Source: a virus. From it: a DNA stretch of 64,000 nucleotides. Position 1 is the first letter of the stretch, and every line of letters starts with the position of its first letter. Below are positions 2-64,000 of the stretch, piece by piece. The DNA lies in the IMG/VR virus record IMGVR_UViG_3300017971_007885, positions 36,483 through 100,482 of that record. One strand, given 5' to 3'. A model generated the notes under the pieces. That model searched no databases and had not been told where the DNA came from. It saw only the letters and a list, made by a program, of their open reading frames with translations. The translations under genes were made by a program, and so were the position numbers.

Positions 2-211
2 GCTCAGACGACAACCCAACTTGGAAAGGAATTTGCCCACAAGATCCGATTGGTTCAGGGGGCCGTGAATAGGTTACAGGCCAGATTATCAAGCGGCAAG
101 GGCAAAACGGCCAATATAGAGCGGGATCTTAGGCGATATGCCAGGCTGGCTACAGCCATTCGAGAAGAGTATAACCGATTGCTTGATGAGTTTTCAGGGG
201 CCGGGGTATGA
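2..211 (+). CDS. 3' end of a hypothetical protein (truncated by window edge)
   Basis: Open frame AQTTTQLGKEF...EFSGAGV* whose TGA overlaps the next ATG (ATGA at 208-211). Confidence 0.6.
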   Translation, partial: AQTTTQLGKEFAHKIRLVQGAVNRLQARLSSGKGKTANIERDLRRYARLATAIREEYNRLLDEFSGAGV

Positions 212-1245
212 ACCAAAGAGCGGCACTTGATCCTGAATCGTGTTCCAAGCACAGGGCTTGGTTTAATGGTTGGGTGGTCACCCAGAGGGGCGGGCCAGGC
301 TCTGGTAACTGGGGCCATAAGGGGCGGAAGGGGCAACGGGGTGGATCGTTGGCCAAGACAGGCGGGGCCGCCTTTGCCCTTTACCGGTACATGCGCAAAA
401 AGAAGGCCGGATTATCAAGCCCCGCCGCCAAAGCCGTGATCGATGGGATCAAGGCCCAGAGGCCGGATGCCACGGATGCCGGGATCGAGATGTATCTAGA
501 CACGATGGGTATGGACCGTGAAAAGTTCGACTATTATGGCGAAAAGTTGGGCTTGGATGTGGATGCGCTCCGGGATCCGTTTTTTGCCGAGATAGGCGAA
601 ACAGACAAGGCCATGGAACGGCTCAAGATGCAGATCCAGGACAAGGCAACCTATCAATGGATCGGCACGAGTGGCAAAAAGTTTGTGGCCTTTTCTCAGG
701 AAACGCCAGATGATATATGGGAAAAGGTCAAAACGCCGGTAGGGACCACTTCAGCCGATGCGATCGACAAGCTGAAGAGCCAGGGGATCAAGGTCAATAT
801 ACAGGGTGACGTAAAAGAAGAGCGGTTGCATCGGGAGTTATCGCAATTATCCAACTTGCTTCAGGAAAAGCCCATTCTGCAAAAGATCTTTACTTCCCAA
901 GGGGGCCGGGTAGACTACCGGGAAAGGCCGCCCCACAAGCCAACGGCTTCAGCTTCTTATGAATTTGACAAGATCGTGGTGTGGGCTGGAGAAGACGACT
1001 TTCCCAACTTTCCCAACGTATGGGCTCACGAGATAGGCCATGCGACGGCCAAAATGGCCAGTGTCAAGGATATGGCCAAAGTGTTTGGCCGGGGTCGTCA
1101 CGTAAGCGCCTATGCCTGGACTAACTTCCAAGAGGACTTTGCGGAAACATTCACAAGCGTGATCTTTGGGGACCAGAAAGCCCAGAGTTTTGCAGGTCCG
1201 GACAAGGTTGGTTTTATCAATGACCTATTGGCGAGGGTACAATGA
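208..1245 (+). CDS. Head-associated protein with GGPGSGNWGH motif and C-terminal zincin metallopeptidase
   Basis: GGPGSGNWGHKGRKGQRGGS motif typical of phage head/MuF-associated proteins; AHEIGH (HExxH) plus YAWTNFQEDFAETF. Confidence 0.75.
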   Translation: MNQRAALDPESCSKHRAWFNGWVVTQRGGPGSGNWGHKGRKGQRGGSLAKTGGAAFALYRYMRKKKAGLSSPAAKAVIDGIKAQRPDATDAGIEMYLDTMGMDREKFDYYGEKLGLDVDALRDPFFAEIGETDKAMERLKMQIQDKATYQWIGTSGKKFVAFSQETPDDIWEKVKTPVGTTSADAIDKLKSQGIKVNIQGDVKEERLHRELSQLSNLLQEKPILQKIFTSQGGRVDYRERPPHKPTASASYEFDKIVVWAGEDDFPNFPNVWAHEIGHATAKMASVKDMAKVFGRGRHVSAYAWTNFQEDFAETFTSVIFGDQKAQSFAGPDKVGFINDLLARVQ

Positions 1246-1439
1246 CCACGGTGCGGATTATTCCATGCCAGGAACGTGGTTGCCGGTGGCTCCGAGATCC
1301 AAAAGGGCCATTGGACGATCCGGTTTTTGTGTGTTACGCATTTCCGAACGGGATACCCGAAGAGATCCTAAACGGCAAAAACGATCACACAAAGCCCTAT
1401 CCGGGCGATGATGGTTTTATGTTCCAGGCGGAAGAGTAG
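1242..1439 (+). CDS. Small Cys-containing phage protein (CxAFPxGIP...DHxxPYPGDxG family)
   Basis: CYAFPNGIPEEILNGKNDHTKPYPGDDG motif, often seen after MuF/toxin-like head genes; ATGA coupling. Confidence 0.65.
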   Translation: MTTVRIIPCQERGCRWLRDPKGPLDDPVFVCYAFPNGIPEEILNGKNDHTKPYPGDDGFMFQAEE

Positions 1440-1717
1440 TGCTTGATCGATTGGCGTATTTCTTCCACCCATTCCTTGGCGTTGACCTGGACGCCGGTCA
1501 GATCGAGCGAGTTGGACACGACGAATAGACCATATAGGGTTTGGATCACAGATTCGATTTGATCGGCTGAATAGGCGGCCAATGCCGGGCCGATCTCTCG
1601 GGCAAGGCGCATGTTGCGCTCTTTGCGTGTGACTGCTACACTGGGGAAATAAAAAGAATGTGCCCCCGGCGCTTTCAGTGCTTCACGCATCTTTGACACG
1701 TATTCTTGCAGTTTCAT
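1397..1717 (-). CDS. Hypothetical protein, antisense moron-like gene with its own promoter
   Basis: SD GAAGGGAG before ATG; extended -10 TGGTATAAT on the minus strand at 1740-1748. Confidence 0.55.
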   Translation of the reverse strand: MKLQEYVSKMREALKAPGAHSFYFPSVAVTRKERNMRLAREIGPALAAYSADQIESVIQTLYGLFVVSNSLDLTGVQVNAKEWVEEIRQSIKHYSSAWNIKPSSPG

Positions 1718-1754
1718 GTGTGCTCCCTTCTATAAGGGAATTATACCATGAAAA

Positions 1755-4010
1755 ATGGATAAAGGTAAAACTATGGAGCCCAGATCAAACGATCAATTGG
1801 CCACGATGGCCAAAAAAGAATCATTGGCCCTTGCCCAAAAGGCCAGTGCGCCAAAATCATCGATCCAGCTTCGAGTAACCGATCCGGCAAAGTTGGCCGG
1901 CGGTTGGAGTTCGGGCTTGACCAATTTTGTGAACCTCTTGGCCGGTCAAGATCAAGGGTGCCCGCCATGGTCGTGCCCATTGCGCCGGGCTGACTATTTG
2001 GAATCGGTTTGGCGTAATGATAGCCGTCTATCAGGTGTGATCTTTACGATGGTTTCACGGATCGCTTCACTGGGGTGGGCCATTGTGGGGCCGATCAAGA
2101 AATTAAGACGTTGGTACGATATGCTTGCGTGGGCAGATGAAGAGGGATGGACTCAGTTTATCAAACTGTTTTTTGCCGACTATCTGACCACGGATGAAGG
2201 CGGGATTCTGGAAACAACCCGGAGCTTTTATCCCCGTGGTCCGCTCGTTTCTTTGTGGAATATGGACGCCAGGCACGCCATACCGGGACCGGTCACGTTG
2301 CCCGCAAAAACTGAAGTGGCCGGAAAGAGCACCAAGATGAAGTCTTGGCCGCTTATTTTCAAAGATCAAGATCATTGGAAGGGACTCAAGAAAGGGCAAT
2401 TTTTGCGCGTGGCCTCACTTCCGACCACGGACCAATTCAGACGGCGCATGGGGTTCTGTTTTATGTCTAGAATCTTGCGCTATGCCGCTCTAGCCGATGC
2501 CATGCTAAAGTTTCAAGAAGAGCGGGTGTCAAACTTGCCCCCAGAGGGGATCGCCACGATCTCAGGACTAACCAGGCCACAGGTCGAGAAGGCCATGCAG
2601 GAATACACCCTTCAGCGCAAACAAAAAAACCAGTTGACATGGCCGGGCGTGCTTTGGTTGGTATCCAATACCTATGGTCAGGAATGCAAGGTAGCTTTTA
2701 CAAGCTTTCGCCAGGTGTGGGAAAACTTTAGTGATCGGGAAGCAAACGAGGTTTTTTCTAAAGTCGTGGCACTGGATGCCGGGATCGATGTATCCGAGAT
2801 ATGGCAAGTGGAATTCCACGGGGCAACAAAGGCCGCTTCTTGGCTCCAGCACAAAAAGAGCTTGGGCAAGGGATCGGCTGAATTTATCGTGGAATTCGAG
2901 CGATGGATCGCCAGGAACACGCCTCAAGATATCGCTTTCCGCTTTGACACGCCGGACGACGAACAGGACGTGACGCATGAGCGGATCCGGCAAATGCGAA
3001 TTAAAAACATCAAGGAGCTTTGGGTACCGCCTCAAGGACAAGAAGAAGGACTGCTTACAAAAGAACAAGCTCTTGAGTTATTGGCCATGGAGCAGGTTAT
3101 ACCCAACTATATGGCCGCCCCAACTATAAGCACGGTGACTGACATTATCAAAAGCAACACAGGGGGGACCATTGGCCGGATGCACTTTCCTTCAGGGGCT
3201 ATCGAGATTGACCGGCCATATTGGCAACTTGATGCCACGATGCTGACAGCCGCCGATCTTGACCTGGAGCCGGTCAACCGGAATGATCCGGGGATCGATG
3301 CCTTGCTAGATGAAGCATCCCCAGAGTTGGCCACTCAACTAATCCCGATCGTCAAGCGGTGGGAAGACCTGAACGAGCGACTTAGGAGAGTGCTTGATCT
3401 ATGGCAAAGGGATATAATAAGCGAGTTGGAAGGCAACCCGGATATTTTGGCAGATCCAAACTACTGGAGCGGATGGGGCGATCAAATCTCAGATGCTCTT
3501 ATGCCCGCCTTTTATCAATCGGCACTCGAAGGCGGCATGAGTGTACTATCTCAACCCGGTCTAGATGTAAGCTTTGATCGGGTCAATCAAGTGGCCAGGC
3601 AGGTAGCACAAGAAGAGATGTTTGGCATGGTCAGCTTGACAGGCAATGAAAGCATAGTGCGATCACGCCGGGAACTGCTTGATCAAGTGCGCAAGGACTT
3701 GGCCACGGAAAAGATCGCTTGGACAGATGTGGAAGGGCGGCTTGCCCCCTACTTTGGAGCGGGCCGGGCACGTATGATTGCCGTGTCCGAGAACACCGAT
3801 CTATGGGCCGGGGCTCAGTTACGAACGGCCACGGGTGCAGGGCTCACGGAAAAGAGGTCTATCCGGGCTGACATTGGCCGGGTATGCCCAACCCACATAT
3901 GTGACGATGCGCAAGCGGCGGGGTGGGTGCCGATCGATGAAGAGATCGTGCCGGGTCATAAGCGCCCAAGATACCATCCTATGTGCTATTGTTTCACTCA
4001 ATACCGCTAA
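1755..4010 (+). CDS. Portal protein fused to a MuF/minor head morphogenesis domain
   Basis: Portal-sized helical N-terminal region at the start of the head module; C-terminus RARMIAVSE...CPTHIC...YHPMCYC is the MuF (SPP1 gp7-like) signature; alternative start 1773. Confidence 0.75.
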   Translation: MDKGKTMEPRSNDQLATMAKKESLALAQKASAPKSSIQLRVTDPAKLAGGWSSGLTNFVNLLAGQDQGCPPWSCPLRRADYLESVWRNDSRLSGVIFTMVSRIASLGWAIVGPIKKLRRWYDMLAWADEEGWTQFIKLFFADYLTTDEGGILETTRSFYPRGPLVSLWNMDARHAIPGPVTLPAKTEVAGKSTKMKSWPLIFKDQDHWKGLKKGQFLRVASLPTTDQFRRRMGFCFMSRILRYAALADAMLKFQEERVSNLPPEGIATISGLTRPQVEKAMQEYTLQRKQKNQLTWPGVLWLVSNTYGQECKVAFTSFRQVWENFSDREANEVFSKVVALDAGIDVSEIWQVEFHGATKAASWLQHKKSLGKGSAEFIVEFERWIARNTPQDIAFRFDTPDDEQDVTHERIRQMRIKNIKELWVPPQGQEEGLLTKEQALELLAMEQVIPNYMAAPTISTVTDIIKSNTGGTIGRMHFPSGAIEIDRPYWQLDATMLTAADLDLEPVNRNDPGIDALLDEASPELATQLIPIVKRWEDLNERLRRVLDLWQRDIISELEGNPDILADPNYWSGWGDQISDALMPAFYQSALEGGMSVLSQPGLDVSFDRVNQVARQVAQEEMFGMVSLTGNESIVRSRRELLDQVRKDLATEKIAWTDVEGRLAPYFGAGRARMIAVSENTDLWAGAQLRTATGAGLTEKRSIRADIGRVCPTHICDDAQAAGWVPIDEEIVPGHKRPRYHPMCYCFTQYR

Positions 4011-4030
4011 GCATCATAGAAAGATTGTCA

Positions 4031-5035
4031 ATGCCTAGAAAAGCAACTAGAATACAAAAAGTCTGTAAAGTTTGCGGTGAACCATTTGAAGTGCTCCCAA
4101 GTAGAGCCAAGAAGCGGTTTTGCTCCAAGTCATGCGCCGCCAAAGTAAACCGCAAGACTAAAAATCCAGTGTTTGTAAAGTGTCAACAATGTGGCGTAGA
4201 ATTCCAGGTGCCACCAAGTAGAAGAGATGCCAAGTTTTGTTCCAAAGAGTGCTATGGAGAATCCAAGAAGGGCATAGTGCCGGATGTAAAAGGCAAGCAT
4301 TGGTGGAATTCGGAGCCGGTCACTTTGGAATGTGAGCAGTGCCACGCACCGTTTCAGGTGCCAGAATCACGGAAAGGCACGGCGCGTTTTTGCACAAAAA
4401 CATGTGCCGATCTTTGGAGAGTAGGCCGGGATAGACCAGAAATGAAGCGCCAGGTCCAGGTAACTTGTGAACAGTGCGGCAAGACATTTTCAATCAATGC
4501 CGCCCAAACAGAACGGCGCTTTTGTTCTCGGGGTTGTCGTGCTCTATGGCTTGGTGAACTGCAAGCGGGCCAGGATCATCCAGGTTACAACAGTGAAGAG
4601 CGGGCTTGTTTGCAGTGCGGGAAGCCGATCCAGGTAACCAAGGGGTACAGAGAAAAGGGATGGGGTCAGTTTTGCAACCGGCAATGCCAGGCGCTCTATC
4701 AAGTGGGAGCCAATAGCCCGGCATGGAAGGGCGGCTTGTCTTTTGAGCCGTATCCCCCCGAGTTTAACGATCGGCTGAAGCGCCCGGTGTGGGCACGGGA
4801 TCGGGGTATTTGCCGGTGTGGATGTGGCCAACCCGGTGCCGATGTGCACCATGTGGACTATGACAAGGAAAACAACAGCTTGGGCAACTTGGTGCTTTTG
4901 GCCAAGTCATGCCACGGCAAAACGAACTTCAACCGGGAGCACTGGACGGCATTTTTCCAGGCCCAACAAGAGGGATTATCAAATGCCATACCCAAACGAG
5001 CACGCCGCAAGGCTCAACAACCCGGACAAGTATAA
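4031..5035 (+). CDS. HNH endonuclease with tandem Zn-ribbon repeats
   Basis: Five CxxCGxxF...FCSxxC-type repeats, then RDRGIC...DVHHVDYDKENN...LLAKSCHGKTN. Confidence 0.85.
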   Translation: MPRKATRIQKVCKVCGEPFEVLPSRAKKRFCSKSCAAKVNRKTKNPVFVKCQQCGVEFQVPPSRRDAKFCSKECYGESKKGIVPDVKGKHWWNSEPVTLECEQCHAPFQVPESRKGTARFCTKTCADLWRVGRDRPEMKRQVQVTCEQCGKTFSINAAQTERRFCSRGCRALWLGELQAGQDHPGYNSEERACLQCGKPIQVTKGYREKGWGQFCNRQCQALYQVGANSPAWKGGLSFEPYPPEFNDRLKRPVWARDRGICRCGCGQPGADVHHVDYDKENNSLGNLVLLAKSCHGKTNFNREHWTAFFQAQQEGLSNAIPKRARRKAQQPGQV

Positions 5036-14003: not shown

Positions 14004-14852
14004 ATGAGCCGGAGTGATAGGGGAAGCCCTTCCGGGGCTTCCCCCACTGTACACCTTGTGGGCAAGCGAGATCCGTGGATCTTAGGCAGGTATGCCGATA
14101 TCTTGACCGGGCGGCTTGGTTGGTCAATCGGAGAACGTCCAAAAACGGACGTGGCCTTGAACCTCTTTTGGCCTTACTTGTCGATCATGGTCGGGGATCC
14201 GCTCCCACAGACCAAGAACGCCGCTTTTTTCACGCACCTTGAAGAAGCGGAAAGAGGCCGTACCCAGTCAAAAATAAACCGATGGCATAACGCGGCTCAA
14301 GTGGTGGACCTGCGGATCTGCATGACTGCCAAATACAGGGAGATCTTGGCTCCCCATGGGCCAACGGTGCACGTGCCGGTACCCATAGAAGAGCAGTTTG
14401 CGCCCTGCAAATTGCGGGTGGGTGTGGCCGGGAAGGTGTATGATTTATCTCGCAAGGGTGAAGACCTGGTGCGGCAATTGGTCAACACCAAAGAATTTGA
14501 CGTGATCGGGGCCGGAGAAGGATGGCCGTGCCCCACAAAGTTTTACAAGTGGGCGGATATGCCCAAATTTTATCAATCGCTTGATGTGTTCCTGGTTACG
14601 TCTGAAGTGGAAGGCGGGCCGGTAACGATGCTAGAGGCGCTTAGATGTGGCGTGCCGGTTGTGGCTCCGGCACACGTGGGAATGGTGGATGAATTCCAGG
14701 TGGCCACATACAAGCGGGGCAATTTTCAATCAATGCTTGCCCGGCTCCGGACCTTCCAGTTGGGAAGGATAAAGCGATATCAGAGCGTGGCCAATAGAAC
14801 GGTGGAAAACTTTGCGCAAGCCTGTCAACAAGCCATCGAACGGGTATGCTAA
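14004..14852 (+). CDS. Glycosyltransferase, GT-B/GT4-like
   Basis: RKGEDL...FYQSLDVFLVTSEVEGGPVTMLEALRCGVPVV. Confidence 0.85.
   Translation: MSRSDRGSPSGASPTVHLVGKRDPWILGRYADILTGRLGWSIGERPKTDVALNLFWPYLSIMVGDPLPQTKNAAFFTHLEEAERGRTQSKINRWHNAAQVVDLRICMTAKYREILAPHGPTVHVPVPIEEQFAPCKLRVGVAGKVYDLSRKGEDLVRQLVNTKEFDVIGAGEGWPCPTKFYKWADMPKFYQSLDVFLVTSEVEGGPVTMLEALRCGVPVVAPAHVGMVDEFQVATYKRGNFQSMLARLRTFQLGRIKRYQSVANRTVENFAQACQQAIERVC
14020..14044 (+). promoter_or_regulatory. GC hairpin after the capsid gene (mRNA stabiliser or weak terminator)
   Basis: GGGGAAGCCC-TTCCG-GGGCTTCCCC with no U-tract. Confidence 0.5.
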
Positions 14853-15501
14853 CACAGGGGCCATGTTTGTGGCTTATGGTCAGAAAGCGATCCAATGTTT
14901 CTATGATTGTGCGGAATCGCTCCGAGTGCATCACCCGGATATGCCTATAGTGGTGATCGGGGATCAATCAATCGTTTTCCCGAATTGCACGTGCCTACAG
15001 GAGCCAAGCACCGATATCGGAGCCAGAAGCATCAAGACTCAGATTTGGCGGTATGTACCCGATGGTTGGACATATGCGCTATACATGGATGTTGACACAC
15101 TTGTATTGAAACCGCTAGATCGTTTCTTGCAACCATTGCTTGACGGTTGGGAACTGGTTATGGTCCGGGATGAGTTGGCGGATGTAGTGGATCGGTGCCG
15201 ACTCAAGAACAATGAAGAAAAGCAACACATCAAGAACGCTTTTGGGACCGGGGAACTAGTCCAGTTTGCGGGCGGTTTGTTTTCTTGGCGTATATGCCCA
15301 ACAGTGCAACGTTTTTTCGAGATATGGCATGCAGAGTGGGGCCGTTTCAGCTTCAGGGATCAAGGGGCTTTGGTGCGGGCCTTGGCACTTACGCCGGTCA
15401 AACTTTGGCCACTCGGATGGGCGGCCAATGCTTCCAAACGAGAGCATGCGATCGAAGTATGGCATATACACGGCAAGGCCAGAATGGCAGGTGCTCAATG
15501 A
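14812..15501 (+). CDS. Glycosyltransferase, GT-A (GT8/nucleotide-diphospho-sugar transferase-like)
   Basis: ALYMDVDT (DxD), RDQGAL, WHIHG; real start probably ATG 14863. Confidence 0.75.
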   Translation: MRKPVNKPSNGYANTGAMFVAYGQKAIQCFYDCAESLRVHHPDMPIVVIGDQSIVFPNCTCLQEPSTDIGARSIKTQIWRYVPDGWTYALYMDVDTLVLKPLDRFLQPLLDGWELVMVRDELADVVDRCRLKNNEEKQHIKNAFGTGELVQFAGGLFSWRICPTVQRFFEIWHAEWGRFSFRDQGALVRALALTPVKLWPLGWAANASKREHAIEVWHIHGKARMAGAQ

Positions 15502-16517
15502 CTTGGTTACAAGCATGGATTATCAATCAAGATCCGGTTGCCCAGTTGGCCGTAGCGGAAAAAGGTGGGCCGGGCTCCGGGAACTGGGGACACGCCGGAG
15601 TAAAGGGCACTCGTGGCGGATCTGCTCCTAAACGGGGCAAAGGTGCGGCCATGTCTTTGGCTACTGGCAAGGATTGGGAAGAGCGCCAGATGCAAACCAT
15701 AGAAGATGCTTACTTGGCAGATGCTGAAGATAGTTCCAAGCGACTTTATCAAGCCGCCGTGAAGGGTGGCAAGCTGTCTACCAAAGAACAAAGAAAGGAT
15801 GCCCTGAAGAGCTACAAAGCACTCAAAGAATTAGACCGGCATAGCATGTATGAGCCGATGGATGACTATCCGGCTATGTCGGAAGCCCTTGCCTATACTG
15901 TTAGTCATGGCAGTTTGAAACAAGCAAGGGCCAACTTCCAAGAAATTGCCGATCTGTTGGTAGATCCAAAACGTAAAGAAGAAGAAGAGTGGAAAGTGCA
16001 CCGGGTGGATGCCATAACACGGGCCAGGGGTGAACGAGTGCCGGGCCTAAAGAAACAAGCAAAGCCAAAGCCGGTTGAGGTAGTAAAGCCGTCCGGACCG
16101 GAAGCAAAAAAGATCTTGGATGCCAAACCGGTCACGGATGACTATTATATAAACCGCCCAGTAAGCCGGAGAACGATCGGGGGCGGGGTAACAAGCGAAT
16201 GGCAGAAGGTCAAGGCCAAGCCGGTTAAGGTAGCGGGCTATGAAGATCAAGATTTTTTCATTCACCGGCCATTGGGCTCCAGAAAAAGCGGTTGGACTAT
16301 CTCAGAAGGCCGCACCGGTACATCACTTGTTTTACAATACGGCGGCACTCAGGCCAAAGCCATCCGAAAGCTTACGACTATACTGGACAAAATAAAGAAA
16401 GCAGGGCGGACCACGTTTCAGAACAAAATAACCAGTGCCGTGAACGCCAGTACACAAAGAGGTCAGCCTTTGCAATCGCCCCGCTATGGCGGAACAGGGC
16501 CAATATATAGGGGCTAG
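15498..16517 (+). CDS. Second GGPGSGNWGH-motif head-associated protein
   Basis: KGGPGSGNWGHAGVKGTRGGS; ATGA coupling. Confidence 0.65.
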   Translation: MTWLQAWIINQDPVAQLAVAEKGGPGSGNWGHAGVKGTRGGSAPKRGKGAAMSLATGKDWEERQMQTIEDAYLADAEDSSKRLYQAAVKGGKLSTKEQRKDALKSYKALKELDRHSMYEPMDDYPAMSEALAYTVSHGSLKQARANFQEIADLLVDPKRKEEEEWKVHRVDAITRARGERVPGLKKQAKPKPVEVVKPSGPEAKKILDAKPVTDDYYINRPVSRRTIGGGVTSEWQKVKAKPVKVAGYEDQDFFIHRPLGSRKSGWTISEGRTGTSLVLQYGGTQAKAIRKLTTILDKIKKAGRTTFQNKITSAVNASTQRGQPLQSPRYGGTGPIYRG

Positions 16518-16531
16518 AAGGGATACTTGAC

Positions 16532-16984
16532 GTGAAGCTACAACTTGGGGCCGGGGACCGGCCACGTCAAGGGTACATTAACAGCGATATTATCAAACTG
16601 CCAGGGATCCAGGTGATTCACGATCTGAATGTGCTTCCATGGCCCTGGGAAGATGGGAAATTTGAAGAGATCCTATCTTTGGCTGTGTTTGAACACTTGT
16701 GGCTCAGACTGGACACGAGTATAGAAGAGTGTTGGCGGCTCCTGAAGCCGGACGGCTTGCTTATTTTCAAAGTGCCAGATTGCAATTCCCCCACAGTGGC
16801 GGATGATCCACAACACATTCATAGGGGATGGAGCAACCGGACTTTTGACTTCTTCGATCCGACTCGGGGCGAATATGGCAAGCGGGGCCAGATGTATGGA
16901 TATCATCCATGGTCCGTTCTCTCGATCAAGCCGATAGCCAACGGGAATTCTTGGATGGTGCGCATGCGGAAGGTTGGGCAATGA
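16532..16984 (+). CDS. Class I SAM-dependent methyltransferase (Methyltransf_11-like)
   Basis: LQLGAGD...HDLNVLPWP...FEH...ECWRLLKPDG. Confidence 0.85.
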   Translation: MKLQLGAGDRPRQGYINSDIIKLPGIQVIHDLNVLPWPWEDGKFEEILSLAVFEHLWLRLDTSIEECWRLLKPDGLLIFKVPDCNSPTVADDPQHIHRGWSNRTFDFFDPTRGEYGKRGQMYGYHPWSVLSIKPIANGNSWMVRMRKVGQ

Positions 16985-38873: not shown

Positions 38874-38894
38874 GGCTGAAATGATGAGGTATTA

Positions 38895-40834: not shown

Positions 40835-40878
40835 TTTACTTACTTTCTAGCCCAGAACTGGGCAAACATTGTATTTGT

Positions 40879-41002
40879 GCAAACTTGGAGCCAATTTGTT
40901 CCGCTTGTCGCTTTTGGCTTGTCCCTAGCTATGACACTTTGGGCCGGACGTTATCCGTTTTGCAAGTCACGCTGTCAGTTGCGCGTGTGGCTCCAAGTTT
41001 GC
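40879..41002 (-). ncRNA. Structured 5' leader or small RNA closed by a 15-bp inverted repeat
   Basis: GCAAACTTGGAGCCA / TGGCTCCAAGTTTGC enclosing three internal hairpins. Confidence 0.5.
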
Positions 41003-41023
41003 GTTTCGTTTTCCTTCAACTCC

Positions 41024-41067
41024 AGTATACCAGATCTGAAGACTAGTTTCCTGACATGAAGCTGACA
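41024..41067 (-). promoter_or_regulatory. Repeated early promoter, copy B
   Basis: TGTCAGCTTCATGTCAG-N21-TATACT. Confidence 0.8.
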
Positions 41068-41070
41068 GTT

Positions 41071-44551: not shown

Positions 44552-44603
44552 TATCAATACCTTTCCGTTGTGGGGAGCCCTTGCCGGGCTCCCCTTTGCT
44601 TGA

Positions 44604-45800: not shown

Positions 45801-45851
45801 TTGTTTGCTCCATTCTAAAATCTGGTTTGTTTGCTGTTCAACTTCAGCTAT

Positions 45852-45906
45852 AGTATACCAGATCCTGGAATAGTTTCCTGACATGAAGCTGACATTTTTC
45901 CCGACA
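45852..45906 (-). promoter_or_regulatory. Repeated early promoter, copy C
   Basis: TGTCGG..TGTCAGCTTCATGTCAG-N20-TATACT. Confidence 0.8.
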
Positions 45907-45912
45907 ATGCAC

Positions 45913-45936
45913 AAAAGGGAGCCGGTTGGCTCCCTT
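45913..45936 (-). terminator. Intrinsic terminator just upstream of promoter C
   Basis: Minus strand AAGGGAGCC-AACC-GGCTCCCTTTT. Confidence 0.7.
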
Positions 45937-45954
45937 CCATATTATCAATGCTCC

Positions 45955-47788
45955 CTAGTTTGGAAGCCTCATGGCCTCTTGGTGCAGGTCTGAAAGCATC
46001 CGCTTCAAGATGTACAACTCGGAATGTGAAAGGCACTCGTGGGCCGCTATCATAAGCGTGGACCTGAGAATACGAATTTGATCCAAGAATTCGCCCAAGT
46101 TGGCCAATTCGTAAACCCGGCACTTGCCACTTGCTTCATCTCGGAAGCCGATAAAACCACCGTGATCGCTGCATTCGCCGTCCATGTCGGCAAACTGCAA
46201 GAACGTGCGATCCGATACCTTGATCGCGTATTTGCCTGTGTAAGCAAAGCGGATCACACTGGGGCATACCACGTCACTAACTGACAACTCGGAAGACTCA
46301 AGCTTGGTCATCGGAGCCCGCCCCACGTTCGTGGGCTTGCCAAGCGAATCGGTGACATATACGCCAAGGATATCCCTGCTCATGTAGAACTCTAACATTA
46401 TCAATCCTTCCCTTTTATGTGGGGTTGCGCCCCAACCGCAACCAATAAACTCATGGCCTTGATCACTTGCTCATGGGCCGTTTGAACGTTTTGTGGGCCG
46501 CCAGTCGCTTGATACAACAGATCATAGGCTTGCTGAAGAGCCACTTGGCGCAATTCCCGGATCATGTTGGCCGGATCGTTCCCTATGCCATGGGCATACT
46601 CCAATTCATGACCACAGATCCACATGGCCAGGGCGTGAAGGGCATCCAACTGCTCTTCATCCAGATCGAACAGATCGGCCAGGGCCGCCCGATTGCCCAG
46701 ATCGTGGGCCGGGTGGATCTTGATGATGCTATCAAAGATAGCACGGCACATCAAGATATCCGTTTCATTCATTTTGGCCATTATCAATCCCTCTTTTTCT
46801 CGGGCAAGTGCCCATAGGTGTGATCCCATACCAACTTTGGGACCATGATTCCGTAAACTTGGCCGTTTTCCGTTCGCCAAAGGGTGTACTCGTGCACCGG
46901 CTTGGCCAACTTGGCATAGGAGCCGCCGATCTTTTGGTGGGCGTGCGTTCTGATTTTGTGCTCTTTGTGCTCCCACGTATGGCGCTCCAAGAATTCGCCC
47001 AAGGTCATGATCCCGCAATAGTAATGTGACACTTGGGCAAGAGCTTTTTGGAGCCGTCCGGCATCTCGGGCGGATATCGCTTTGATCATTTTCCCATCCT
47101 TTTCAGTTTGGCCAGGCACCGGGTGCAGGTCACCGGTTGATCTGGACTTGGCCGCCATTCTGACCAACCCGCCGATCTCGGACCTGGAGCCGAACCACAA
47201 ACGGGCTTCCACTGGGGATAATACCCTTCTCGGGTGTTATTCTTTTTCAACAGCCGGGCGTGGAACAAAGTACCACCGTCCCGTTCCGCACCGTTTGCGC
47301 ACCGTCCGGCTTTGGCGCTCACAGTGTAGCCACGATCAAGATCCACTTGGCACCGGGCACAAAGGCCGTTTTCGTTTAGATCCGCCCCGTAAGTGCGGCA
47401 CATGGAACACGGTGGGCGCTCTGGAGCCGGATCCCGCTTGGGCATATCCGGGCAATCATCTAACATCTTCTTGAACTGCTCCGCAAAAGTCATCTTATAC
47501 GCTCTGGTTTGCAATCCGCAAGCACTGTTGATAGGCCGCCGCCGGGCCGCTTACCCATCGCACATGGTACCACTTGCCGTTTACCGTGCTCTGGACCTCT
47601 TCCGCCATGCCCATTCCCTTGTGAAACCGGGTGCGCATCCGTGGGCCAACTCTCGGGTGCTCTTGACCACATTTTGCGCAAGTGTCGATTGTGGTGCTTG
47701 CCACATCGGTGGGCTGGAGCCGGACATTGTTCCGATCGTATTCTGTACATCCGCACCGGGTGCATACTTTCTTGGGTAAAGTAATCAT
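45955..47788 (-). other. Cluster of early hypothetical CDS: 45955-46398, 46401-46781, 46784-47089, 47086-47493, 47495-47788
   Basis: Coupled co-oriented ORFs with SD sites. Confidence 0.6.
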
Positions 47789-47869
47789 TCGGGTGTCTTT
47801 CACTTGACTGCTCCTGTCTGGATTTGGTTTGGTGGGGCGGCCATTTGGCCGCCCCTCAACTTCAATATC

Positions 47870-47925
47870 ATTGTACCATGAATAGAAACCCCGATCCTGA
47901 CATGAAGCTGACATTTTTTCTGACA
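47870..47925 (-). promoter_or_regulatory. Repeated early promoter, copy D
   Basis: Three TGTCAG units, then N21-TACAAT. Confidence 0.8.
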
Positions 47926-47926
47926 C

Positions 47927-48745
47927 TCAGAGCCTGGAGAAGGCCCATGTCAATTCGTAGCTGTAAAGCTTGTCTTCCGGCAAGGGCTCTTCCGTGACGA
48001 TCCACGTATGGGGCACTGAATCCGATCTTTTTTGGTGCTCCAAGATGCAAGCTTGATCTAGGCTTGCCCACGTCAAAGAAAACGGACGGCTGAAGGAGCC
48101 ATACACGTGCCTAAAATCACCAGCTTGGGCTTCTGGGTGCTTATACTCGAATTCCAACGGTGAAAGCAGGTGCCGGCCGTTTTGGCGCAATTGCGCAACG
48201 TGATCCAGGCCGCAAAGCTTGAAGAGTCGCATAATCCGATCGAATTCATTGGCCGCAAAAGCACCTTTGCCCTTCCACTCGTGGGCACTGGAGCAGTCCA
48301 GGATCATGTAGCTGTAGGTGTCTTTATCAAAAGCCAATAGCAAGGCATCGTTCACTTCCCACCCACGGCGGTTTACTTCCATAACATCTTGCTCAACCTG
48401 GAGCACAAAACGCTTATCCAGATGCATGTATTGCCTTGCATCCAACACGATCATCTTGGGCCGGACCAACCAACGGCGGCCATTGGCCTCTTCCACTCGC
48501 CAATTCTTGGGGAAACTTGGCAGATCGGCCATTGCTTCCAAAAACTCGGCTTCCCGAGTGGGGCAAACAAAGTCAGCATTCATGTATGGGCGGCCATCCA
48601 AAGGTTTCCAGATCTCCCCTTGCCATTCCCACACGCCCCCGGTATGCACGCCATCCGGAAGGCCATCCACGCGCACCGATGCTTCCAGCTTGACAGCATC
48701 TTGGTGGGGTTGGATATCTCTCGTTGAAAGTGGTAACTCGGACAT
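47927..48745 (-). CDS. Protein kinase-like fold protein (divergent)
   Basis: WK...REAEFLEAM (alphaC Glu), NRRGWEVND (catalytic-loop-like), ILDCSSA (DFG-like). Confidence 0.45.
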   Translation of the reverse strand: MSELPLSTRDIQPHQDAVKLEASVRVDGLPDGVHTGGVWEWQGEIWKPLDGRPYMNADFVCPTREAEFLEAMADLPSFPKNWRVEEANGRRWLVRPKMIVLDARQYMHLDKRFVLQVEQDVMEVNRRGWEVNDALLLAFDKDTYSYMILDCSSAHEWKGKGAFAANEFDRIMRLFKLCGLDHVAQLRQNGRHLLSPLEFEYKHPEAQAGDFRHVYGSFSRPFSLTWASLDQACILEHQKRSDSVPHTWIVTEEPLPEDKLYSYELTWAFSRL

Positions 48746-48795
48746 TATCAATCCTTCTAGGGGCGGCACTCGGGCCGCCCCGGTTACAGTGTGGG

Positions 48796-49401
48796 TTAGC
48801 ATGCCCACATGGTTACACTAAAAATCCCGACAAATTCAGCATTCAGACCAATAAGCACCCTTGCATCATAGTCCAACTTGAAGCCCACGGCATTGGTTGC
48901 CATACTGACCACATCCGCTTCCGAGATACCCGCCGCAACCACGGTGTAGCCCTCATTGGCACCGATCCCCCTGACTTCCCAAACTTTGATCTGGGGTTTC
49001 TCTGTGCACACGAAAAGCTTGCCGGGCTTGCCAACAGCGGCGCTCAAAAAAAAGATTTCGCCGTCAAAGTCAAAGCTTGCAAGGGCGATCTCCATTGCAC
49101 GGCGCATCACTGTCCAGCAGTGCCGGGTTATCAATCGCCCATTACACGTGCCTTGATGTGGCGCTTTCCCTAACAACTGACGCTTGTTGAGACTGCTATA
49201 GTTTCCATAGGTCACCGTGTTGCCCACTTCATCCATTGCCTTGCCCAGATCCCCAAAAGCCACAAACGGGGCGGACATTAAGCTTACAACCAATTGACAA
49301 CGGTGCTCAATCCGCACGGAAAACGTGCACTTGGGGAATTCTCGCTTCAATTGTGCTCGTGTTGCTTTGCCCGCCGCCGCCAACGTGATTTGCTTGTCCA
49401 T
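48796..49401 (-). CDS. LPD29-like protein
   Basis: RAQLKREFPKCTFSVR...SLMSAPF. Confidence 0.55.
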   Translation of the reverse strand: MDKQITLAAAGKATRAQLKREFPKCTFSVRIEHRCQLVVSLMSAPFVAFGDLGKAMDEVGNTVTYGNYSSLNKRQLLGKAPHQGTCNGRLITRHCWTVMRRAMEIALASFDFDGEIFFLSAAVGKPGKLFVCTEKPQIKVWEVRGIGANEGYTVVAAGISEADVVSMATNAVGFKLDYDARVLIGLNAEFVGIFSVTMWAC

Positions 49402-49449
49402 TGCTCTATCCCATCTAGGGGGCGGCTTGGCCGCCCCCGAGTACCCAAT

Positions 49450-49818
49450 TTACCCGGCGATCTGGTAAGGCCCAACGTGGTGGACGTTCAGAATGGGCTT
49501 GCCACAAAATAGTTCAAATTCGACTATCCAGGAGCCTTGTGGTACCTCAGCCTGCCGGCCGATCTGGTGCGATTGCTTGGGGCCGCCAGCGTGAAGGCTC
49601 ATCTGGGATTGCATTCGAAGCGTAAAGGGCTCCGCGTTTTGTCGGTACCCGTGATAGGTTGTGGCCTCACTGAGCATAAGCTTCCAGCCGGGTGATTGTA
49701 TGTACAACTCGCACATTCTTGTGCGGTACCGTTTTTGGTAGGCCAAAACTTTTTCAGCCACTGGAGCCGGAAGCGCCTTGATTTGAGCCTTTTTGAGATG
49801 CTGACCTTGTGCTAACAT
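49450..49818 (-). CDS. Hypothetical first early gene
   Basis: SD AAAGGA; directly downstream of promoter E. Confidence 0.6.
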   Translation of the reverse strand: MLAQGQHLKKAQIKALPAPVAEKVLAYQKRYRTRMCELYIQSPGWKLMLSEATTYHGYRQNAEPFTLRMQSQMSLHAGGPKQSHQIGRQAEVPQGSWIVEFELFCGKPILNVHHVGPYQIAG

Positions 49819-49892
49819 TGGTTATCCTTTCTGAGAACAAAAAAAATGGGTTTGGGTGAGCGGTGGTTTGTACCGCCCTTAACTTCATATCC

Positions 49893-49935
49893 AGTATACC
49901 AGATCCTGGAATAGTTTCCTGACATGAAGCTGACA
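49893..49935 (-). promoter_or_regulatory. Repeated early promoter, copy E
   Basis: Identical to copy C over about 45 bp. Confidence 0.8.
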
Positions 49936-57040: not shown

Positions 57041-57283
57041 ATGAGCGGTTGGAACAAGTCAGGATTTGCAACCACGGGGCACCGTCTTCAGTATCTGGAG
57101 CGGTTATTATCAAGGCCGGAAGGGTGTACTCAACAAGAGTATATTATGGTGACCGGGCGGGCGATCGATCGTCAAACCTGGATATCAGATCTATACATCT
57201 ATGCTCAGTGTGCAGGTATGGCGCTCAAGCGGATGGAAGAGCCGGGCCGGTGGCAGTTGATTAGATCGGATGAGGTATCATGA
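57041..57283 (+). CDS. Small HTH-like protein
   Basis: RLQYLERLL...DRQTWISDL; coupled to the next gene. Confidence 0.4.
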   Translation: MSGWNKSGFATTGHRLQYLERLLSRPEGCTQQEYIMVTGRAIDRQTWISDLYIYAQCAGMALKRMEEPGRWQLIRSDEVS

Positions 57284-57723
57284 GCGAACCCATTGCCAGC
57301 TTTACCGGGCAATATGCGTTCTTGTCCAACTTTAGCAGATCAATACTCTACGTGAACGGCTATGTGTATGCCACGGTGGAACATTATTTTCAAGCCCAGA
57401 AGACCGATGATGCCCGTTGGCGGGCCAAGATACGCCAGGCCCAGACGCCAGGGGCGGCCAAGTTGTTGGGCAATGCGTGTCCTTTGCGCTCAGACTGGGA
57501 GCAGGACAAGGAAAACGTCATGTATAGGGGGCTCCAAGCCAAGTTTGCCGATCCGTTTTTGCGCAAAAAGTTGCTTGCCACGGGTGACCGGGAATTGATC
57601 GAAGGCAATCAGCACGGGGATCGAGAGTGGGGGCAGGTCAACGGGGTGGGCGAAAATAAACTTGGCAAGCTTTTGATGAAGCTCCGGGAAGAGATCCGGG
57701 CCAACCGGACGGTGACGTTATGA
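57280..57723 (+). CDS. NADAR (YbiA-like) hydrolase
   Basis: FLSNF...TVEHYFQAQK...AKF...LLATGDRELIEGN...WG...GENKLGKLLM. Confidence 0.92.
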   Translation: MSEPIASFTGQYAFLSNFSRSILYVNGYVYATVEHYFQAQKTDDARWRAKIRQAQTPGAAKLLGNACPLRSDWEQDKENVMYRGLQAKFADPFLRKKLLATGDRELIEGNQHGDREWGQVNGVGENKLGKLLMKLREEIRANRTVTL

Positions 57724-60572: not shown

Positions 60573-61634
60573 ATGGTTGCGCTTTTGACGGCGGGCAAAG
60601 AGCGGGAAGTATTTCGTCCGGTGGCCAAGTGGCGGCGCTCTTATCTTGTCACTGACCGGTATATACCACGCAAAGACAAAAACGAAGTTTTAACGTTCTT
60701 GCAGGACAAGGATGGCCGGGATTGCCATGCCGTGGTGGACGAAGCCTTGTATGATGAATTTGAGGTTGGGGACGTGATCCGTTTCCCACGGTCCAACCCG
60801 AGACAGCCAAATGCAGAAGGTTGGTTGGTTGTGCAACCGCCGTTTGATGTCGTCCGGGCCGTGATGCCCTTGGAGAGATTATCAATCCGAGTTGCGTATA
60901 TCTCGAAACCGGTGCGGATCTGTGAGACGGTGTACTTTGTGACTGCCATAGGACCACAAAAGTGGCTCAAGATCCCCTATGATTTGGCCCAGTCCTATTT
61001 TGAGAAGGGTCAGGTGGGCGGAAGCGGCAAAGACTTCTATCAGGTGTTGGGGGTGTCCAGGGATGCCGAATTGTCCGATATCCGGGCTGCCTATCGCCTT
61101 TTGGTCAGGCAGTATCACCACGATGCAGGTCAGAGGCCGGACGATCAAACCATGCGGCGCATCAATGAAGCGTATGATGTGCTATCCGATCCGGAAGAGC
61201 GGGCCAAATATGACCGGATGATCATGGGCAACGGGCCTTCTTTGATGGGTTGGCCAGGCTCCGGGGCCGGCGAACTGGAGATTTTGGGCGAAGATCGGGG
61301 CTCTTTGATCTGTGCACTTGAGATATTATCATTTAAGCGAGATCAACGGTTTGATCAAGTGACCTTTTTTGCCGGTGAACTATTTGATTTGAGCAAGCCT
61401 CATGCTTCCGTGGCTGCTCACCACACGAGTATCCGCTTTGGATGGCGGTACGAAGGCGAAAAATATACATTTGATGTGTCTAACACATTGCCAAATGTCA
61501 GATATGCGTTCTCTGGAACGTTTGATGTACAGATAGAGTATCGGAAACGTGCGCATTGGAACCCAGACAATGGCGATTATCGCTATACTTGGGACGTGCG
61601 CGATCTTACAATTTTGGGCCACAGTGCCCAATGA
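60573..61634 (+). CDS. Protein with internal J-domain (HPD replaced by HHD)
   Basis: DFYQVLGVSRDA...RQYHHD...INEAYDVLSDPEERAKYD. Confidence 0.8.
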   Translation: MVALLTAGKEREVFRPVAKWRRSYLVTDRYIPRKDKNEVLTFLQDKDGRDCHAVVDEALYDEFEVGDVIRFPRSNPRQPNAEGWLVVQPPFDVVRAVMPLERLSIRVAYISKPVRICETVYFVTAIGPQKWLKIPYDLAQSYFEKGQVGGSGKDFYQVLGVSRDAELSDIRAAYRLLVRQYHHDAGQRPDDQTMRRINEAYDVLSDPEERAKYDRMIMGNGPSLMGWPGSGAGELEILGEDRGSLICALEILSFKRDQRFDQVTFFAGELFDLSKPHASVAAHHTSIRFGWRYEGEKYTFDVSNTLPNVRYAFSGTFDVQIEYRKRAHWNPDNGDYRYTWDVRDLTILGHSAQ

Positions 61635-61648
61635 AGGGAGTATTATCA

Positions 61649-62548
61649 ATGGAGATCAAGGGTTTGACCATCGGTGATCCGGTGGAATCGGGGCGGCTCA
61701 CGGCGTGGCCTCTCTATGGCCAGGACTATCATGGATATGGCTTTGTGGATGAAGTGCAATTGGTCCACGATCATAGCTATGGCCGGATGGGGTTCAAGGG
61801 CGGTGATGATCCGGACGGCGGGATCGCTCCTGCGGGGATGATGTTTTTTATTCCCACGGGCCAGGATCGAGCGCTCCGGGAATCGGTTTTTATTCCATAC
61901 GGCGAAACGGTCTATGTGGATACGGTATGCCTGGAGCCGTCCAACGGGGGGTTGTGGCAACCGGGTGAAGGCATGACCACTCGGGCGTTGCCGATCTCGC
62001 TTCAGGCGGCGCTACCGGATGGCCGGGGGTTCTCTGACCTTTGGCCAGATATCCGCGAGCGACATGCGGCCAATGGCCAAACAGGAACCACGGTGCACGC
62101 GCTATTGAAGCCGGGCCAGTATGTATTATCAAAAGACATGATCGATCCTGATGCCAGGGGCGCTATGTTGGCGATTGATGGCCGGGTTGTGGCGATCGAG
62201 ATTGCCCCCACGAAGCGGGCCTTCCGGCAATGGTGGGTAGAATACGGCCTGTCCGAAGCCTTTGCTTTTGAGGCTCAGACACTGCCAGAACTTCCTTTGC
62301 CCATTGGCCAGGTGGCCGGCGGGACGATCGAGCCGGAAGCGCAAGGTATGCACAAGGTTACGGTCCTGGATATCTTGAAGGGGTGGGTGTATGCGATGAG
62401 CGGCCAGATCATCTATGCTTCTTTGCTGGAAAAAGAGGGTCTGACCGTCTTCAAGAAGCATGGCCAGGAGCGAGCCAGGCCAGATTATCAAGCCGAACCG
62501 GATACGCCATGCGATGGGGACGGTGAACCCCTGGAGTGGGTGGATTGA
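61649..62548 (+). CDS. ARPP-1 (DUF6569)-like protein
   Basis: QDRAL...VFIP...VCLEP...W; GAMLAIDGRVVAIE. Confidence 0.6.
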   Translation: MEIKGLTIGDPVESGRLTAWPLYGQDYHGYGFVDEVQLVHDHSYGRMGFKGGDDPDGGIAPAGMMFFIPTGQDRALRESVFIPYGETVYVDTVCLEPSNGGLWQPGEGMTTRALPISLQAALPDGRGFSDLWPDIRERHAANGQTGTTVHALLKPGQYVLSKDMIDPDARGAMLAIDGRVVAIEIAPTKRAFRQWWVEYGLSEAFAFEAQTLPELPLPIGQVAGGTIEPEAQGMHKVTVLDILKGWVYAMSGQIIYASLLEKEGLTVFKKHGQERARPDYQAEPDTPCDGDGEPLEWVD

Positions 62549-62549
62549 C

Positions 62550-63317
62550 ATGCCGGAGAAGCCCACAGAGTACAGCATAACGGCGGGGCCACGGGTCAAG
62601 GCGCTTGACGATTACGACTTTTTCAATCTTCCCACGGATGTGGTGGATGATTGGCGGTGGGATCGGGTACGCCATCTGGGGATCTTGTGGCTGGATAGTC
62701 AGCTTGTCGAAAAACAGGCGGCGCTTGTTTTGGCACAACGAGAACTTGATGATGCCGTGGCCCATGTCAGAGACTGCAAGAAGCGGTTGGAGTCCAGGGA
62801 AGGCCGGGTGCGCAAGGGCATAGACGAAAAGGAGATCTTTGGTACAGCCAGGACAAACAAGGATGAACGGGAAACCAAGCGGGTGAACATCGTCCGGGCG
62901 GACCAGGATTATCAAGCCCGGCTAGATGCCTACAATGAAGCCGTGGCCATCAAGGACCGGGCGGAAAGCGATCGAGACTTTGCAGAGCAAGCGGTTAAGA
63001 ACGTGCGCATGCGGCTCAATGCCCGGATGTGGTTGATCCAATTCATTACAAGCATAAAGCCGATCCCGTTGGCCAGCGTGCCCGATGAAGATGGCAAGAT
63101 CCCGGCGCTCCAGGTCAAGCCCAAGGTGCAAGAAGCGCAAGTGCCCACGAACCAACAAACACGGGATTGGTTGGCGGCTATGCAGAACCAAGATGCCCGT
63201 TATGGTTTGGTGGGCAAGTTGGCGCTCCAAGTCTTGCCGGAAGGCGTGGATCCGGAACATCCCCGAGTGCAAGAAGTCCGGGCGGATATCCGGAAGCACT
63301 TTGGGCCTACGTTATGA
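62550..63317 (+). CDS. Coiled-coil hypothetical protein
   Basis: Heptad-rich helical sequence. Confidence 0.55.
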   Translation: MPEKPTEYSITAGPRVKALDDYDFFNLPTDVVDDWRWDRVRHLGILWLDSQLVEKQAALVLAQRELDDAVAHVRDCKKRLESREGRVRKGIDEKEIFGTARTNKDERETKRVNIVRADQDYQARLDAYNEAVAIKDRAESDRDFAEQAVKNVRMRLNARMWLIQFITSIKPIPLASVPDEDGKIPALQVKPKVQEAQVPTNQQTRDWLAAMQNQDARYGLVGKLALQVLPEGVDPEHPRVQEVRADIRKHFGPTL

Positions 63318-64000
63318 AACCAGGATGGCACGAAGTGCGGGAATCGGGGCCATTGGCCGGCGGATCGCTCTTGGCGGCGCTTGTTGCTCAGAAATACGAG
63401 CATGTGATCTGGGTGCTTTCATCACAGGCCCACGTGAACATTTTCAACCTGCTTGACTGGGCTCCAGAATACATCTTTGCAATAGAGCGGATCGATCGAT
63501 TCTTTTTGATGTTGGCTGAAGTCCATGACGTGGCCGATCTAGTCGTGGTGGACAACTTTGCGGAATTGGCTCCGGTGCATCCCCAAAACGTGCATATCGC
63601 CGGTGACGTGAAACGGCATTGGTTTAGGCCCAAATGCCCGGTGATCGTCCTGAATCAGGAACGGGTGCCACATCCGCCAGGTGGTGAGTTTTGGCGCTCC
63701 AGGCTCCAGACCAAACAAACATTATCAAACCTGGAACACTATCCAGACCTGTATAGCCAGTTGTGCCCAGATGGCCGGTGGTTAGTTTGGGAGCGTTCCA
63801 GGTGCATCCGGTGCGGCTGTTTAGTACAAGAAGACAACCTTTTGGCGTGCCCCCAGTGCAATCTTGCGCCGTGGGTTGGCAAAGATCCGTACTTTGGGGC
63901 ATGGGATTATCAACAGAGGGAGCGGGTACCATGTAAAGGACAGATGCGAGATTGGCCATTTCTTGGCGGGAAGGATAACAAATGCCTACAAAGCAAGTAG
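63314..64000 (+). CDS. Degenerate RecA-like protein with C-terminal Zn ribbon
   Basis: DLVVVDNFAEL, VIVLNQER, PPGG; Walker A decayed (GPLAGGS); CIRC...CPQC. Confidence 0.5.
   Translation: MKPGWHEVRESGPLAGGSLLAALVAQKYEHVIWVLSSQAHVNIFNLLDWAPEYIFAIERIDRFFLMLAEVHDVADLVVVDNFAELAPVHPQNVHIAGDVKRHWFRPKCPVIVLNQERVPHPPGGEFWRSRLQTKQTLSNLEHYPDLYSQLCPDGRWLVWERSRCIRCGCLVQEDNLLACPQCNLAPWVGKDPYFGAWDYQQRERVPCKGQMRDWPFLGGKDNKCLQSK

Follow-up and report, generated by a model that had tools for sequence, protein, structure and literature searches.

Direction-coding words such as the FtsK-orienting polar sequences (KOPS) and Chi are known for bacterial chromosomes. Here, we ask whether a tailed phage carries a comparable signal and which protein might read it. 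The stretch of DNA analyzed (the window, 64,000 nucleotides) comprises bases 36483–100482 of the single 100,482-bp record IMGVR_UViG_3300017971_007885 (L001 denotes the piece at its start), and counts given for the genome cover the whole record. The phage is uncultured, its metagenome origin is sediment and seawater, and its DNA contains 52% GC. IMG/VR labels the record as a provirus and estimates its completeness at 92%. An initial annotation of the window had pointed to the heptamer TTATCAA as a frequent motif of one strand. We found that this heptamer belongs to a real, strongly selected, direction-coding DNA signal with measured spacing. In its logic, this signal comes closest to KOPS and FtsK, but its density, regularity, single polarity and setting are different.

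Copy number, wording and polarity of the signal

TTATCAA is present 78 times on the plus strand of the window and is absent from the minus strand. The initial annotation had estimated about 75–80 copies and had noticed no reverse complement; the formal count confirmed both statements, and the example coordinates given there were right. Shuffling of the window with preservation of the dinucleotides yielded a mean of 8.1 copies for both strands together and a maximum of 17. For ATTATCAA, we counted 61 plus-strand and no minus-strand copies (61/0) when 2.5 were expected. In the whole record, the corresponding numbers were 117/0 for TTATCAA and 93/0 for ATTATCAA. The suggestion that polarity should be followed elsewhere in the genome and in related phages led to the same result: no switch was found in five related records, in which the word totals 129/0, nor in any part of the 100,482 bp, which represent 92% of the estimated genome.

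A k-mer survey of the genome returned TTATCA at 149/2, TTATCA[AT] at 141/0 and the variant TTTTCAA at 37/1. The motif of the initial annotation was thus right but slightly too narrow, and the word is better written TTWTCAW, mostly as ATTATCAA. The extended preference reads R-G-A-TTATCAA followed by any base except C, and the flanks contribute little. Two known protein-binding sites were considered and rejected as identity of the word. For an IHF site (WATCAA-N4-TTR), no T enrichment was seen 4–6 bases after the word, and for a DnaA box (TTWTNCACA), C is disfavored at the base at which this box needs it.

Selection for one orientation at the DNA level

Inside plus-strand genes, the copies of TTATCAA are distributed over all three reading frames (42/26/26), in line with the earlier remark that they fall in different codon frames. 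Two null models, a synonymous-codon shuffle and a codon-order shuffle, were applied, which keep the proteins or the codon usage. With the synonymous-codon shuffle, 19.9 ± 3.6 forward copies were expected in plus-strand genes and 94 were observed, whereas 4.7 reverse copies were expected and none was observed. The codon-order shuffle predicted 8.1 ± 3.0 forward copies (94 observed) and 8.5 reverse copies (0 observed). Forward copies are consequently 5–12 times as frequent as the codon-aware expectation. For the reversed 6-mer TTATCA, a single copy was found in plus-strand genes, as compared with 13–27 expected. Exact per-strand counts against a codon-aware null had been proposed as a check of the motif, and they gave a strong forward excess and no reverse copy. 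The forward excess and the reverse deficit indicate that the word has been gained in one direction and purged in the other.

The block of minus-strand genes (Table 1) provides a second line of evidence. GC skew flips in this 11-kb region and the orientation of the word is unchanged (TTATCAA 12/0, TTATCAW 15/0), as had been noted before for the heptamer. The orientation is therefore independent of the genes. Most copies in this block are intergenic, and several are located exactly in the spacer between the ribosome binding site and the start codon, where they read TTGATAATG on the gene strand. It seems that selection puts the word where it is least costly, always in the same DNA orientation. 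Taken together, TTWTCAW is a cis-acting, orientation-dependent signal at the DNA level, for which the forward direction is selected and the reverse direction counter-selected on a single strand of the whole genome.

Spacing of the word

When we analyzed the distances between neighboring copies, we found that 44–48% of the TTATCAW/TTWTCAW gaps measure 300–500 bp. Random placement predicts 16–18%, and the largest value in 2000 trials was 28%. Conversely, gaps shorter than 300 bp account for 9–16% of the observed distances versus 34–42% under random placement. Gap lengths concentrate around 400, 800 and 1200 bp, with a nearly empty range of 500–700 bp; in some of the double gaps, a TTTTCAA is located near the middle. 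The histogram of all pair distances shows peaks at about 300–500 and 750–850 bp, then near 1250, 1575 and 2000 bp, and a deep trough at 550–700 bp. Two of the relatives have similar modes (about 400, 800 and 1130–1250 bp), with one and no gap in the range of 500–700 bp. This quantized spacing of about 400 bp, the active depletion of reverse copies and two further one-way words (GCCAGR and GGGCCG, see below) go beyond what the initial annotation had described.

A strong anticorrelation links each short gap to the next one (r = −0.78, n = 36, permutation p < 2e-4). The sum of two consecutive short gaps (806 ± 43 bp) is tighter than a single gap (401 ± 64 bp), and thus the distance to the next-but-one copy is held more tightly than that to the nearest. 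No long-range phase coherence of the lattice was detected (maximal spectral power 8.5), so that the order extends over short distances only, like that of a liquid or of a lattice with vacancies. Inspection by eye did not reveal two site classes alternating in flank sequence. Since other frequent one-way words of this genome are spaced irregularly, regular spacing is not a property of the genes. The geometry of a capsid spool was rejected as ruler by reasoning, because the turn length of a multilayer spool varies continuously and the quantum is constant along the genome. No model considered here accounts for where the ruler of about 400 bp comes from.

The largest word-free stretch of the genome (22.2–25.7 kb, outside the window) is kept in the relatives. 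It coincides with a jump in GC skew from about −0.2 to +0.4, and this jump is adjoined, within 21.0–25.7 kb of the genome, by perfect tandem repeats (3 × 33 bp and 3 × 21 bp) and two more direct repeats. The one-way system may start or end in the region at 22.2–25.7 kb, which could be an origin or have a different control function.

Conservation in related phages

The five related IMG/VR fragments mentioned above were recognized by a terminase large subunit (TerL) that is 88–97% identical or by an FtsK-like protein that is 90% identical, and they align to the genome at 76–84% nucleotide identity over about half of their length. In the aligned segments, the word is kept in place at 36 of 39 sites (92%) as compared with 35% of control 7-mers. 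Three of the five fragments overlap, so that there are fewer independent sites than 39, but each fragment alone shows the conservation effect. This conservation, together with the codon-aware nulls and the constant orientation in the minus-strand block, bears out the earlier proposal of a signal in the DNA and not of a codon or mRNA effect.

More distant phages use the word differently. The four short contigs of the Ga0315308 lineage (L078–L081), the TerL of which is 40–46% identical and which lack nucleotide similarity to the genome, carry the dialect TTWTCAAGA with 25 forward and 2 reverse copies. Such a dialect between lineages would fit a protein reader that co-evolves with its word. The relative G001 (63.6 kb, TerL 55% identical) has a weak version only (15/3), restricted to one gene block and oriented opposite to TerL, and no FtsK-like match was obtained in this 58%-complete fragment. 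In two short contigs with 44–54% TerL identity, the word was not found. A pattern scan of IMG/VR for two copies 345–375 bp apart yielded only chance matches in AT-rich contigs among the matches listed. Judged from these relatives, the Ga0315308 dialect and the weak or absent cases, the signal is older than the species, varies in its wording and is patchy across the terminase tree.

An FtsK-like operon encodes a candidate reader

The initial annotation had listed a translocase, a packaging or ejection motor, a primase, a recombination enzyme and a coating protein as possible readers. From this list, the translocase has gained ground, since an FtsK-family motor with a tethered helix-turn-helix (HTH)-like domain is encoded (Table 1), whereas primase, helicase and polymerase families went undetected. 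The motor matches PF01580 (E-value 5.5e-19) and the Pseudomonas FtsK motor in PDB (3e-19). Its structural model (pLDDT 84) retrieved FtsK motor structures (6t8o/2ius) in Foldseek with E-values of about 1e-23 (best 5e-24) and TM-scores of 0.64–0.72, and it fits the FtsK motor better than conjugative coupling proteins or EccC. The motor is followed by a disordered linker (residues 339–356) and by a conserved C-terminal four-helix HTH-like domain of 75 amino acids. When this domain was modeled alone (pLDDT 87), nearly all of its best matches were winged-helix DNA-binding regulators (Z 5–6.2). FtsK-like orthologues at 69–77% identity are known. The operon behind the promoter-like site comprises three genes, which encode the RHH-like protein, the motor and the two-span protein; the last of these is a possible membrane anchor for the motor. 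Motor, tether, small DNA-binding-like domain and separate membrane partner correspond to the architecture of a sequence-guided DNA pump.

Table 1 Location of the signal, of the candidate readers and of other features (window positions unless L001 is given)
Feature	Position	Strand	Remarks
Array of one-way TTWTCAW	85-63913	+	besides TTATCAA: TTATCAT 13 and TTTTCAA 26 on +; one TTTTCAA on −
Open reading frame in the head module with zinc ribbon and weak HNH-like stretch	3983-5035	+	18.9 bits to PF01844 and 21.5 bits to PF13392, both below Pfam cut-offs
Glycosyltransferases, small methyltransferase and GHL10-like hydrolase	14058-18108 and 34705-35994		amid virion genes
499-amino acid protein with BNR/sortilin-type repeats	20429-21928		
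Near-consensus sigma-70-like promoter	36566-36594	+	TTGACA, 17-nt spacer, TAGAAT, with TG; pattern match only; precedes the FtsK-like operon
Small protein with ribbon-helix-helix (RHH)-like N-terminus	36611-36949	+	by eye; no Pfam hit; second candidate reader
FtsK/SpoIIIE-family double-stranded DNA translocase	36912-38204	+	430 amino acids, no transmembrane part; main candidate reader
Protein with two hydrophobic membrane spans	38201-38647	+	by eye; start overlaps translocase stop
Block of minus-strand genes	38861-49900	−	word stays on +
Two minus-block proteins with LPD29 domain (large polyvalent-protein-associated domain)	38895-40283 and 48796-49401	−	
Early-region genes: NADAR domain protein, DnaJ-domain protein, ARPP-1-like protein	57280-57723, 60573-61634, 61649-62548		
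Actin-like ALP/ParM homologue	L001:4285-5292		PF17989 and PF21522; PHROG 'partition protein'

Possible functions of the signal

A model of the signal has to account for its single orientation throughout the replicon, the purging of reverse copies, the forward gain together with the site conservation, the quantum of about 400 bp and the dialects. Our tentative reading is that the word orients a machine that tracks DNA in one direction; the most plausible candidate is the FtsK-like translocase of the phage. We place this pump first because a one-way tracking machine fits four of the five requirements and the pump is the only such machine that we found. A protein machine would travel the whole genome in one direction reading the word, which would tell it the direction or would let it re-engage at short regular intervals. 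The reader would most likely be the phage's FtsK/SpoIIIE-type pump for double-stranded DNA, with its motor, its flexible linker and its small HTH-like domain, and the co-translated two-span protein would probably anchor it at the membrane. Such a pump would work in a KOPS-like manner, but along a viral chromosome of single polarity. Genome import, transfer across a membrane or septum, and clearing or segregation of replicated DNA are conceivable purposes. Depletion of reverse copies would be predicted for a translocase that reads orientation, and KOPS are likewise counter-selected in the wrong orientation.

Among known systems, KOPS (GGGNAGGG) with FtsK gamma and the SpoIIIE recognition sequences (SRS) with SpoIIIE resemble the phage signal in that a short asymmetric word in double-stranded DNA steers an FtsK-family pump and wrong-way copies are counter-selected. 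KOPS are read by a motor that carries a small DNA-binding domain on a flexible tether, and a protein of comparable architecture, with an HTH-like domain, is encoded here. Two hallmarks of a KOPS-type system were found in the phage, an FtsK/SpoIIIE alpha-beta motor (PF01580, PDB, Foldseek) and a skewed asymmetric word with wrong-way depletion (117/0 in the genome; no reverse copy versus 4.7–8.5 expected). TraB of Streptomyces conjugative plasmids is comparable as FtsK-like pump of a mobile element, which recognizes a word of 8 bp and transports double-stranded DNA through membranes. However, the clt repeats form one local cluster and not a genome-wide lattice of single polarity. DNA uptake sequences (Haemophilus USS, Neisseria DUS) share the density of about one copy per kb, are also written into genes and are more evenly spaced than chance, but they occur in both orientations and in competent bacteria, not in phages.

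Several observations weigh against a role of the pump as reader. The KOPS and SRS sites known from bacteria are rich in G, lack even spacing and are about 15 times sparser than TTWTCAW, and their polarity changes at ori and dif. The phage word, in contrast, is AT-rich, evenly spaced, 100% one-way throughout the replicon and lacks a switch at an origin or dif; a polarity that converges on dif and switches at the origin was thus not found. The setting is also different, since we are dealing with a tailed phage that has a terminase as well. The C-terminal domain of the pump is not a recognizable gamma domain: the FtsK gamma domain PF09397 was not found in the genome and hhalign of the C-terminal domain against bacterial gamma domains gave a probability of 0.7%, which is not significant. 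Its structural matches at Z 5–6.2 are generic, within the range of common helical arrangements. Mycobacteriophage Omega, taken to test whether one-way words accompany FtsK-like genes, has such a gene and no such word. Finally, the translocase model alone explains neither the 400-bp quantum nor the scarcity of close pairs.

Alternatively, the word might be a site of enzyme action on one strand. It would then be cut by a nickase, which leaves a regularly interrupted strand, or used by a primase that starts lagging-strand fragments of about 400–800 nt during one-directional (rolling-circle or end-to-end) replication. We consider this possible but doubtful. Strict one-strand placement along the genome with absence of reverse copies would be expected, an AT-rich heptamer in a 52% GC genome is easily melted, and regular spacing would be natural for Okazaki-type fragments. 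The reverse complement TTGATAA has what we take to be a resemblance to the CTTG/ATA nick core of the phiX174 and pC194 replication proteins. Among the genes, the open reading frame with zinc ribbon and weak HNH-like stretch is the only candidate nickase that we saw, but its HNH matches are under the cut-offs. Six-frame family searches of the record gave no PolA, PolB, DnaB-type helicase (DnaB_C), Toprim primase (Toprim_2) or Prim-Pol; these negatives cover known families in a 92%-complete record, and divergent families or the missing 8% could still hold such an enzyme. A pC194-type Rep was not matched in the record either, but the Rep_1 control matched nowhere and this blank is therefore uninformative. 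The localized nicks of phages T5, tf and phiKMV likewise mark one strand of the genome in a sequence-specific manner, but these sets comprise only 4 to a few dozen sites, are irregularly placed and have a longer or different consensus, and known primases read 3 bases. Moreover, measuring from start to start would not yield gaps at 400, 800 and 1200 bp with anticorrelated neighbors.

The spacing data are best matched by an architectural role, in which the word would be the docking site of a protein (for example, the RHH-like protein or an adaptor of the actin-like partition protein). This protein would condense or segregate the genome by folding it into regular loops or into a solenoid with turns of about 400 bp, and the uniform orientation would lead to head-to-tail stacking. 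The quantized gaps, the near-empty range of 500–700 bp and the tighter two-gap sum suggest registration to a physical repeat, and of all models this one fits the 400-bp quantum best. A length of about 400 bp is near the optimum for DNA looping according to established polymer physics, and both an RHH-like protein and an ALP/ParM homologue are encoded. Nevertheless, we regard this role as unlikely. Long-range phase coherence is lacking, and the purge is fitted least well, because architectural proteins seldom depend on a total loss of the reverse orientation and as a rule do not impose it. In the six-frame search of the record, HU/IHF families gave no match, the site lacks the rest of the IHF consensus, and the RHH assignment was made by eye only.

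Whichever protein is involved, the one-strand lattice of about 400 bp might be a physical ruler for an undescribed kind of viral-chromosome handling, a rather speculative proposal to which we give limited credence. The ruler could belong to a membrane-anchored FtsK-type pump, which moves the genome of a phage or plasmid-prophage through a membrane or septum and engages the DNA anew at measured intervals, or to a phage 'chromatin', the oriented sites of which align the DNA with a repeating protein scaffold.

A Chi-like function seems very unlikely. Here, the word would switch off a helicase-nuclease (host RecBCD/AddAB or a phage enzyme destroying host DNA) that enters one free end of rolling-circle or packaged DNA, so that the genome counts as 'self'. 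Chi with RecBCD/AddAB is also an orientation-dependent word that changes the behavior of a DNA-tracking enzyme. The one-way orientation matches a single entry end, high density would limit DNA loss, and the genome contains a truncated SMC/Rad50-like gene as well as a gene for an RNase_H-fold nuclease-like protein. Host-nuclease pressure is heavy: in coding regions, the palindromes GGGCCC (0 vs. 39 expected), CGCG (65 vs. 342) and TTAA (68 vs. 232) are deficient, which indicates strong restriction-site avoidance. However, a Chi function requires no even spacing and no purging of the reverse orientation, and known Chi words are rich in G, defined by the host, lack even spacing and also occur in reverse. 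The dialects of the lineages point as much to a phage-encoded as to a host reader.

Other one-way words and restriction escape

TTWTCAW is not the only one-way word of this phage. GCCAGR was counted 146/0 in the window and 230/0 in the genome, GGGCCG 71/4 and 116/9, and CCGGGC 109/12 in the genome. None of the three flips its orientation in the minus-gene block. According to the codon-aware nulls, reversed GCCAGG (CCTGGC) is absent versus 20–24 copies expected and its forward copies are 3–5 times as frequent as expected. The spacing of GCCAGR and GGGCCG is irregular and there is no fixed offset from TTATCA to GCCAG or GGGCCG. Sites of these other words are moderately conserved (64–66% vs. 39% for controls). 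In the Ga0315308 lineage, GCCAGR is not one-way and GGGCCG is (24/1).

Type III, Type ISP and MANTIS systems cut only between head-to-head sites and drive phages to one orientation, and all 36 EcoP15I sites of T7 are in direct repeat (bioRxiv 10.64898/2026.09.23.753747). GCCAGR, and perhaps GGGCCG, probably reflect escape from restriction that needs head-to-head sites, separate from TTWTCAW. For GCCAGR, the reverse depletion expected for such an escape was found, but forward copies were not near expectation. That the asymmetry of TTWTCAW is only such an escape, which is documented for phages (bioRxiv 10.64898/2026.09.23.753747) and fits GCCAGR well, is scarcely credible and largely refuted, because escape places all copies of an asymmetric word on one strand by loss of one orientation and predicts neither the 5–12-fold forward gain nor the 92% site conservation nor the spacing lattice.

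The three properties of enrichment, site conservation and spacing thus separate selected signals from restriction-escape asymmetries within one genome. A literature search for the word and for spaced one-way phage motifs returned nothing relevant. A tailed phage with one word, in one direction, along the whole genome and at measured intervals is absent from the literature searched, which has only the orientation loss of restriction escape. If the FtsK-like pump is indeed the reader, a function could be assigned to the FtsK-like genes that are found scattered among phages, and a guided step of DNA transport would be added to the life cycle of a phage. With a nickase, a primase or a scaffold as reader, the quantum of 400 bp would remain a novel principle of design. 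Because the word is short and does not vary and the candidate proteins are small, direct tests in vitro are feasible.

Source genome and gene content

The gene set comprises 132 genes, which were called with a simple codon-usage model. The record is cut, since its start falls within a gene for an SMC/Rad50/SbcC-like ATPase (L001:1-237; signature LSGGE), which is truncated. The protein collection also has a 109,791-bp contig with the same TerL. By TerL, the nearest isolates are Microcystis phage Mvi-JY20 and Myxococcus phage Mx1 with about 25% identity. Megablast of 12 kb of the genome against phage isolates gave no match, and a scan of genome contigs for prophage relatives gave one match, which was irrelevant. 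No tRNA genes were found in the window.

As virion-type genes, we identified a distant terminase large subunit, a tail-fiber-like protein, virion proteins and a probable tape-measure protein of 1353 amino acids. The ALP/ParM homologue and the provirus label hint at a plasmid-prophage lifestyle. LPD29 domains, which two proteins of the minus-strand block carry, are known from conjugative elements and phages. The three early-region genes listed in Table 1 are possible host-takeover or counter-defense genes. Further genes encode a PAPS-reductase-like protein, a radical-SAM protein and an RNase_H-fold nuclease-like protein. Finally, the phage encodes DNA methyltransferases of the Dam type and of the N6/N4 type, and GATC occurs 1040 times in coding regions as compared with 563 ± 21 predicted by codon usage.

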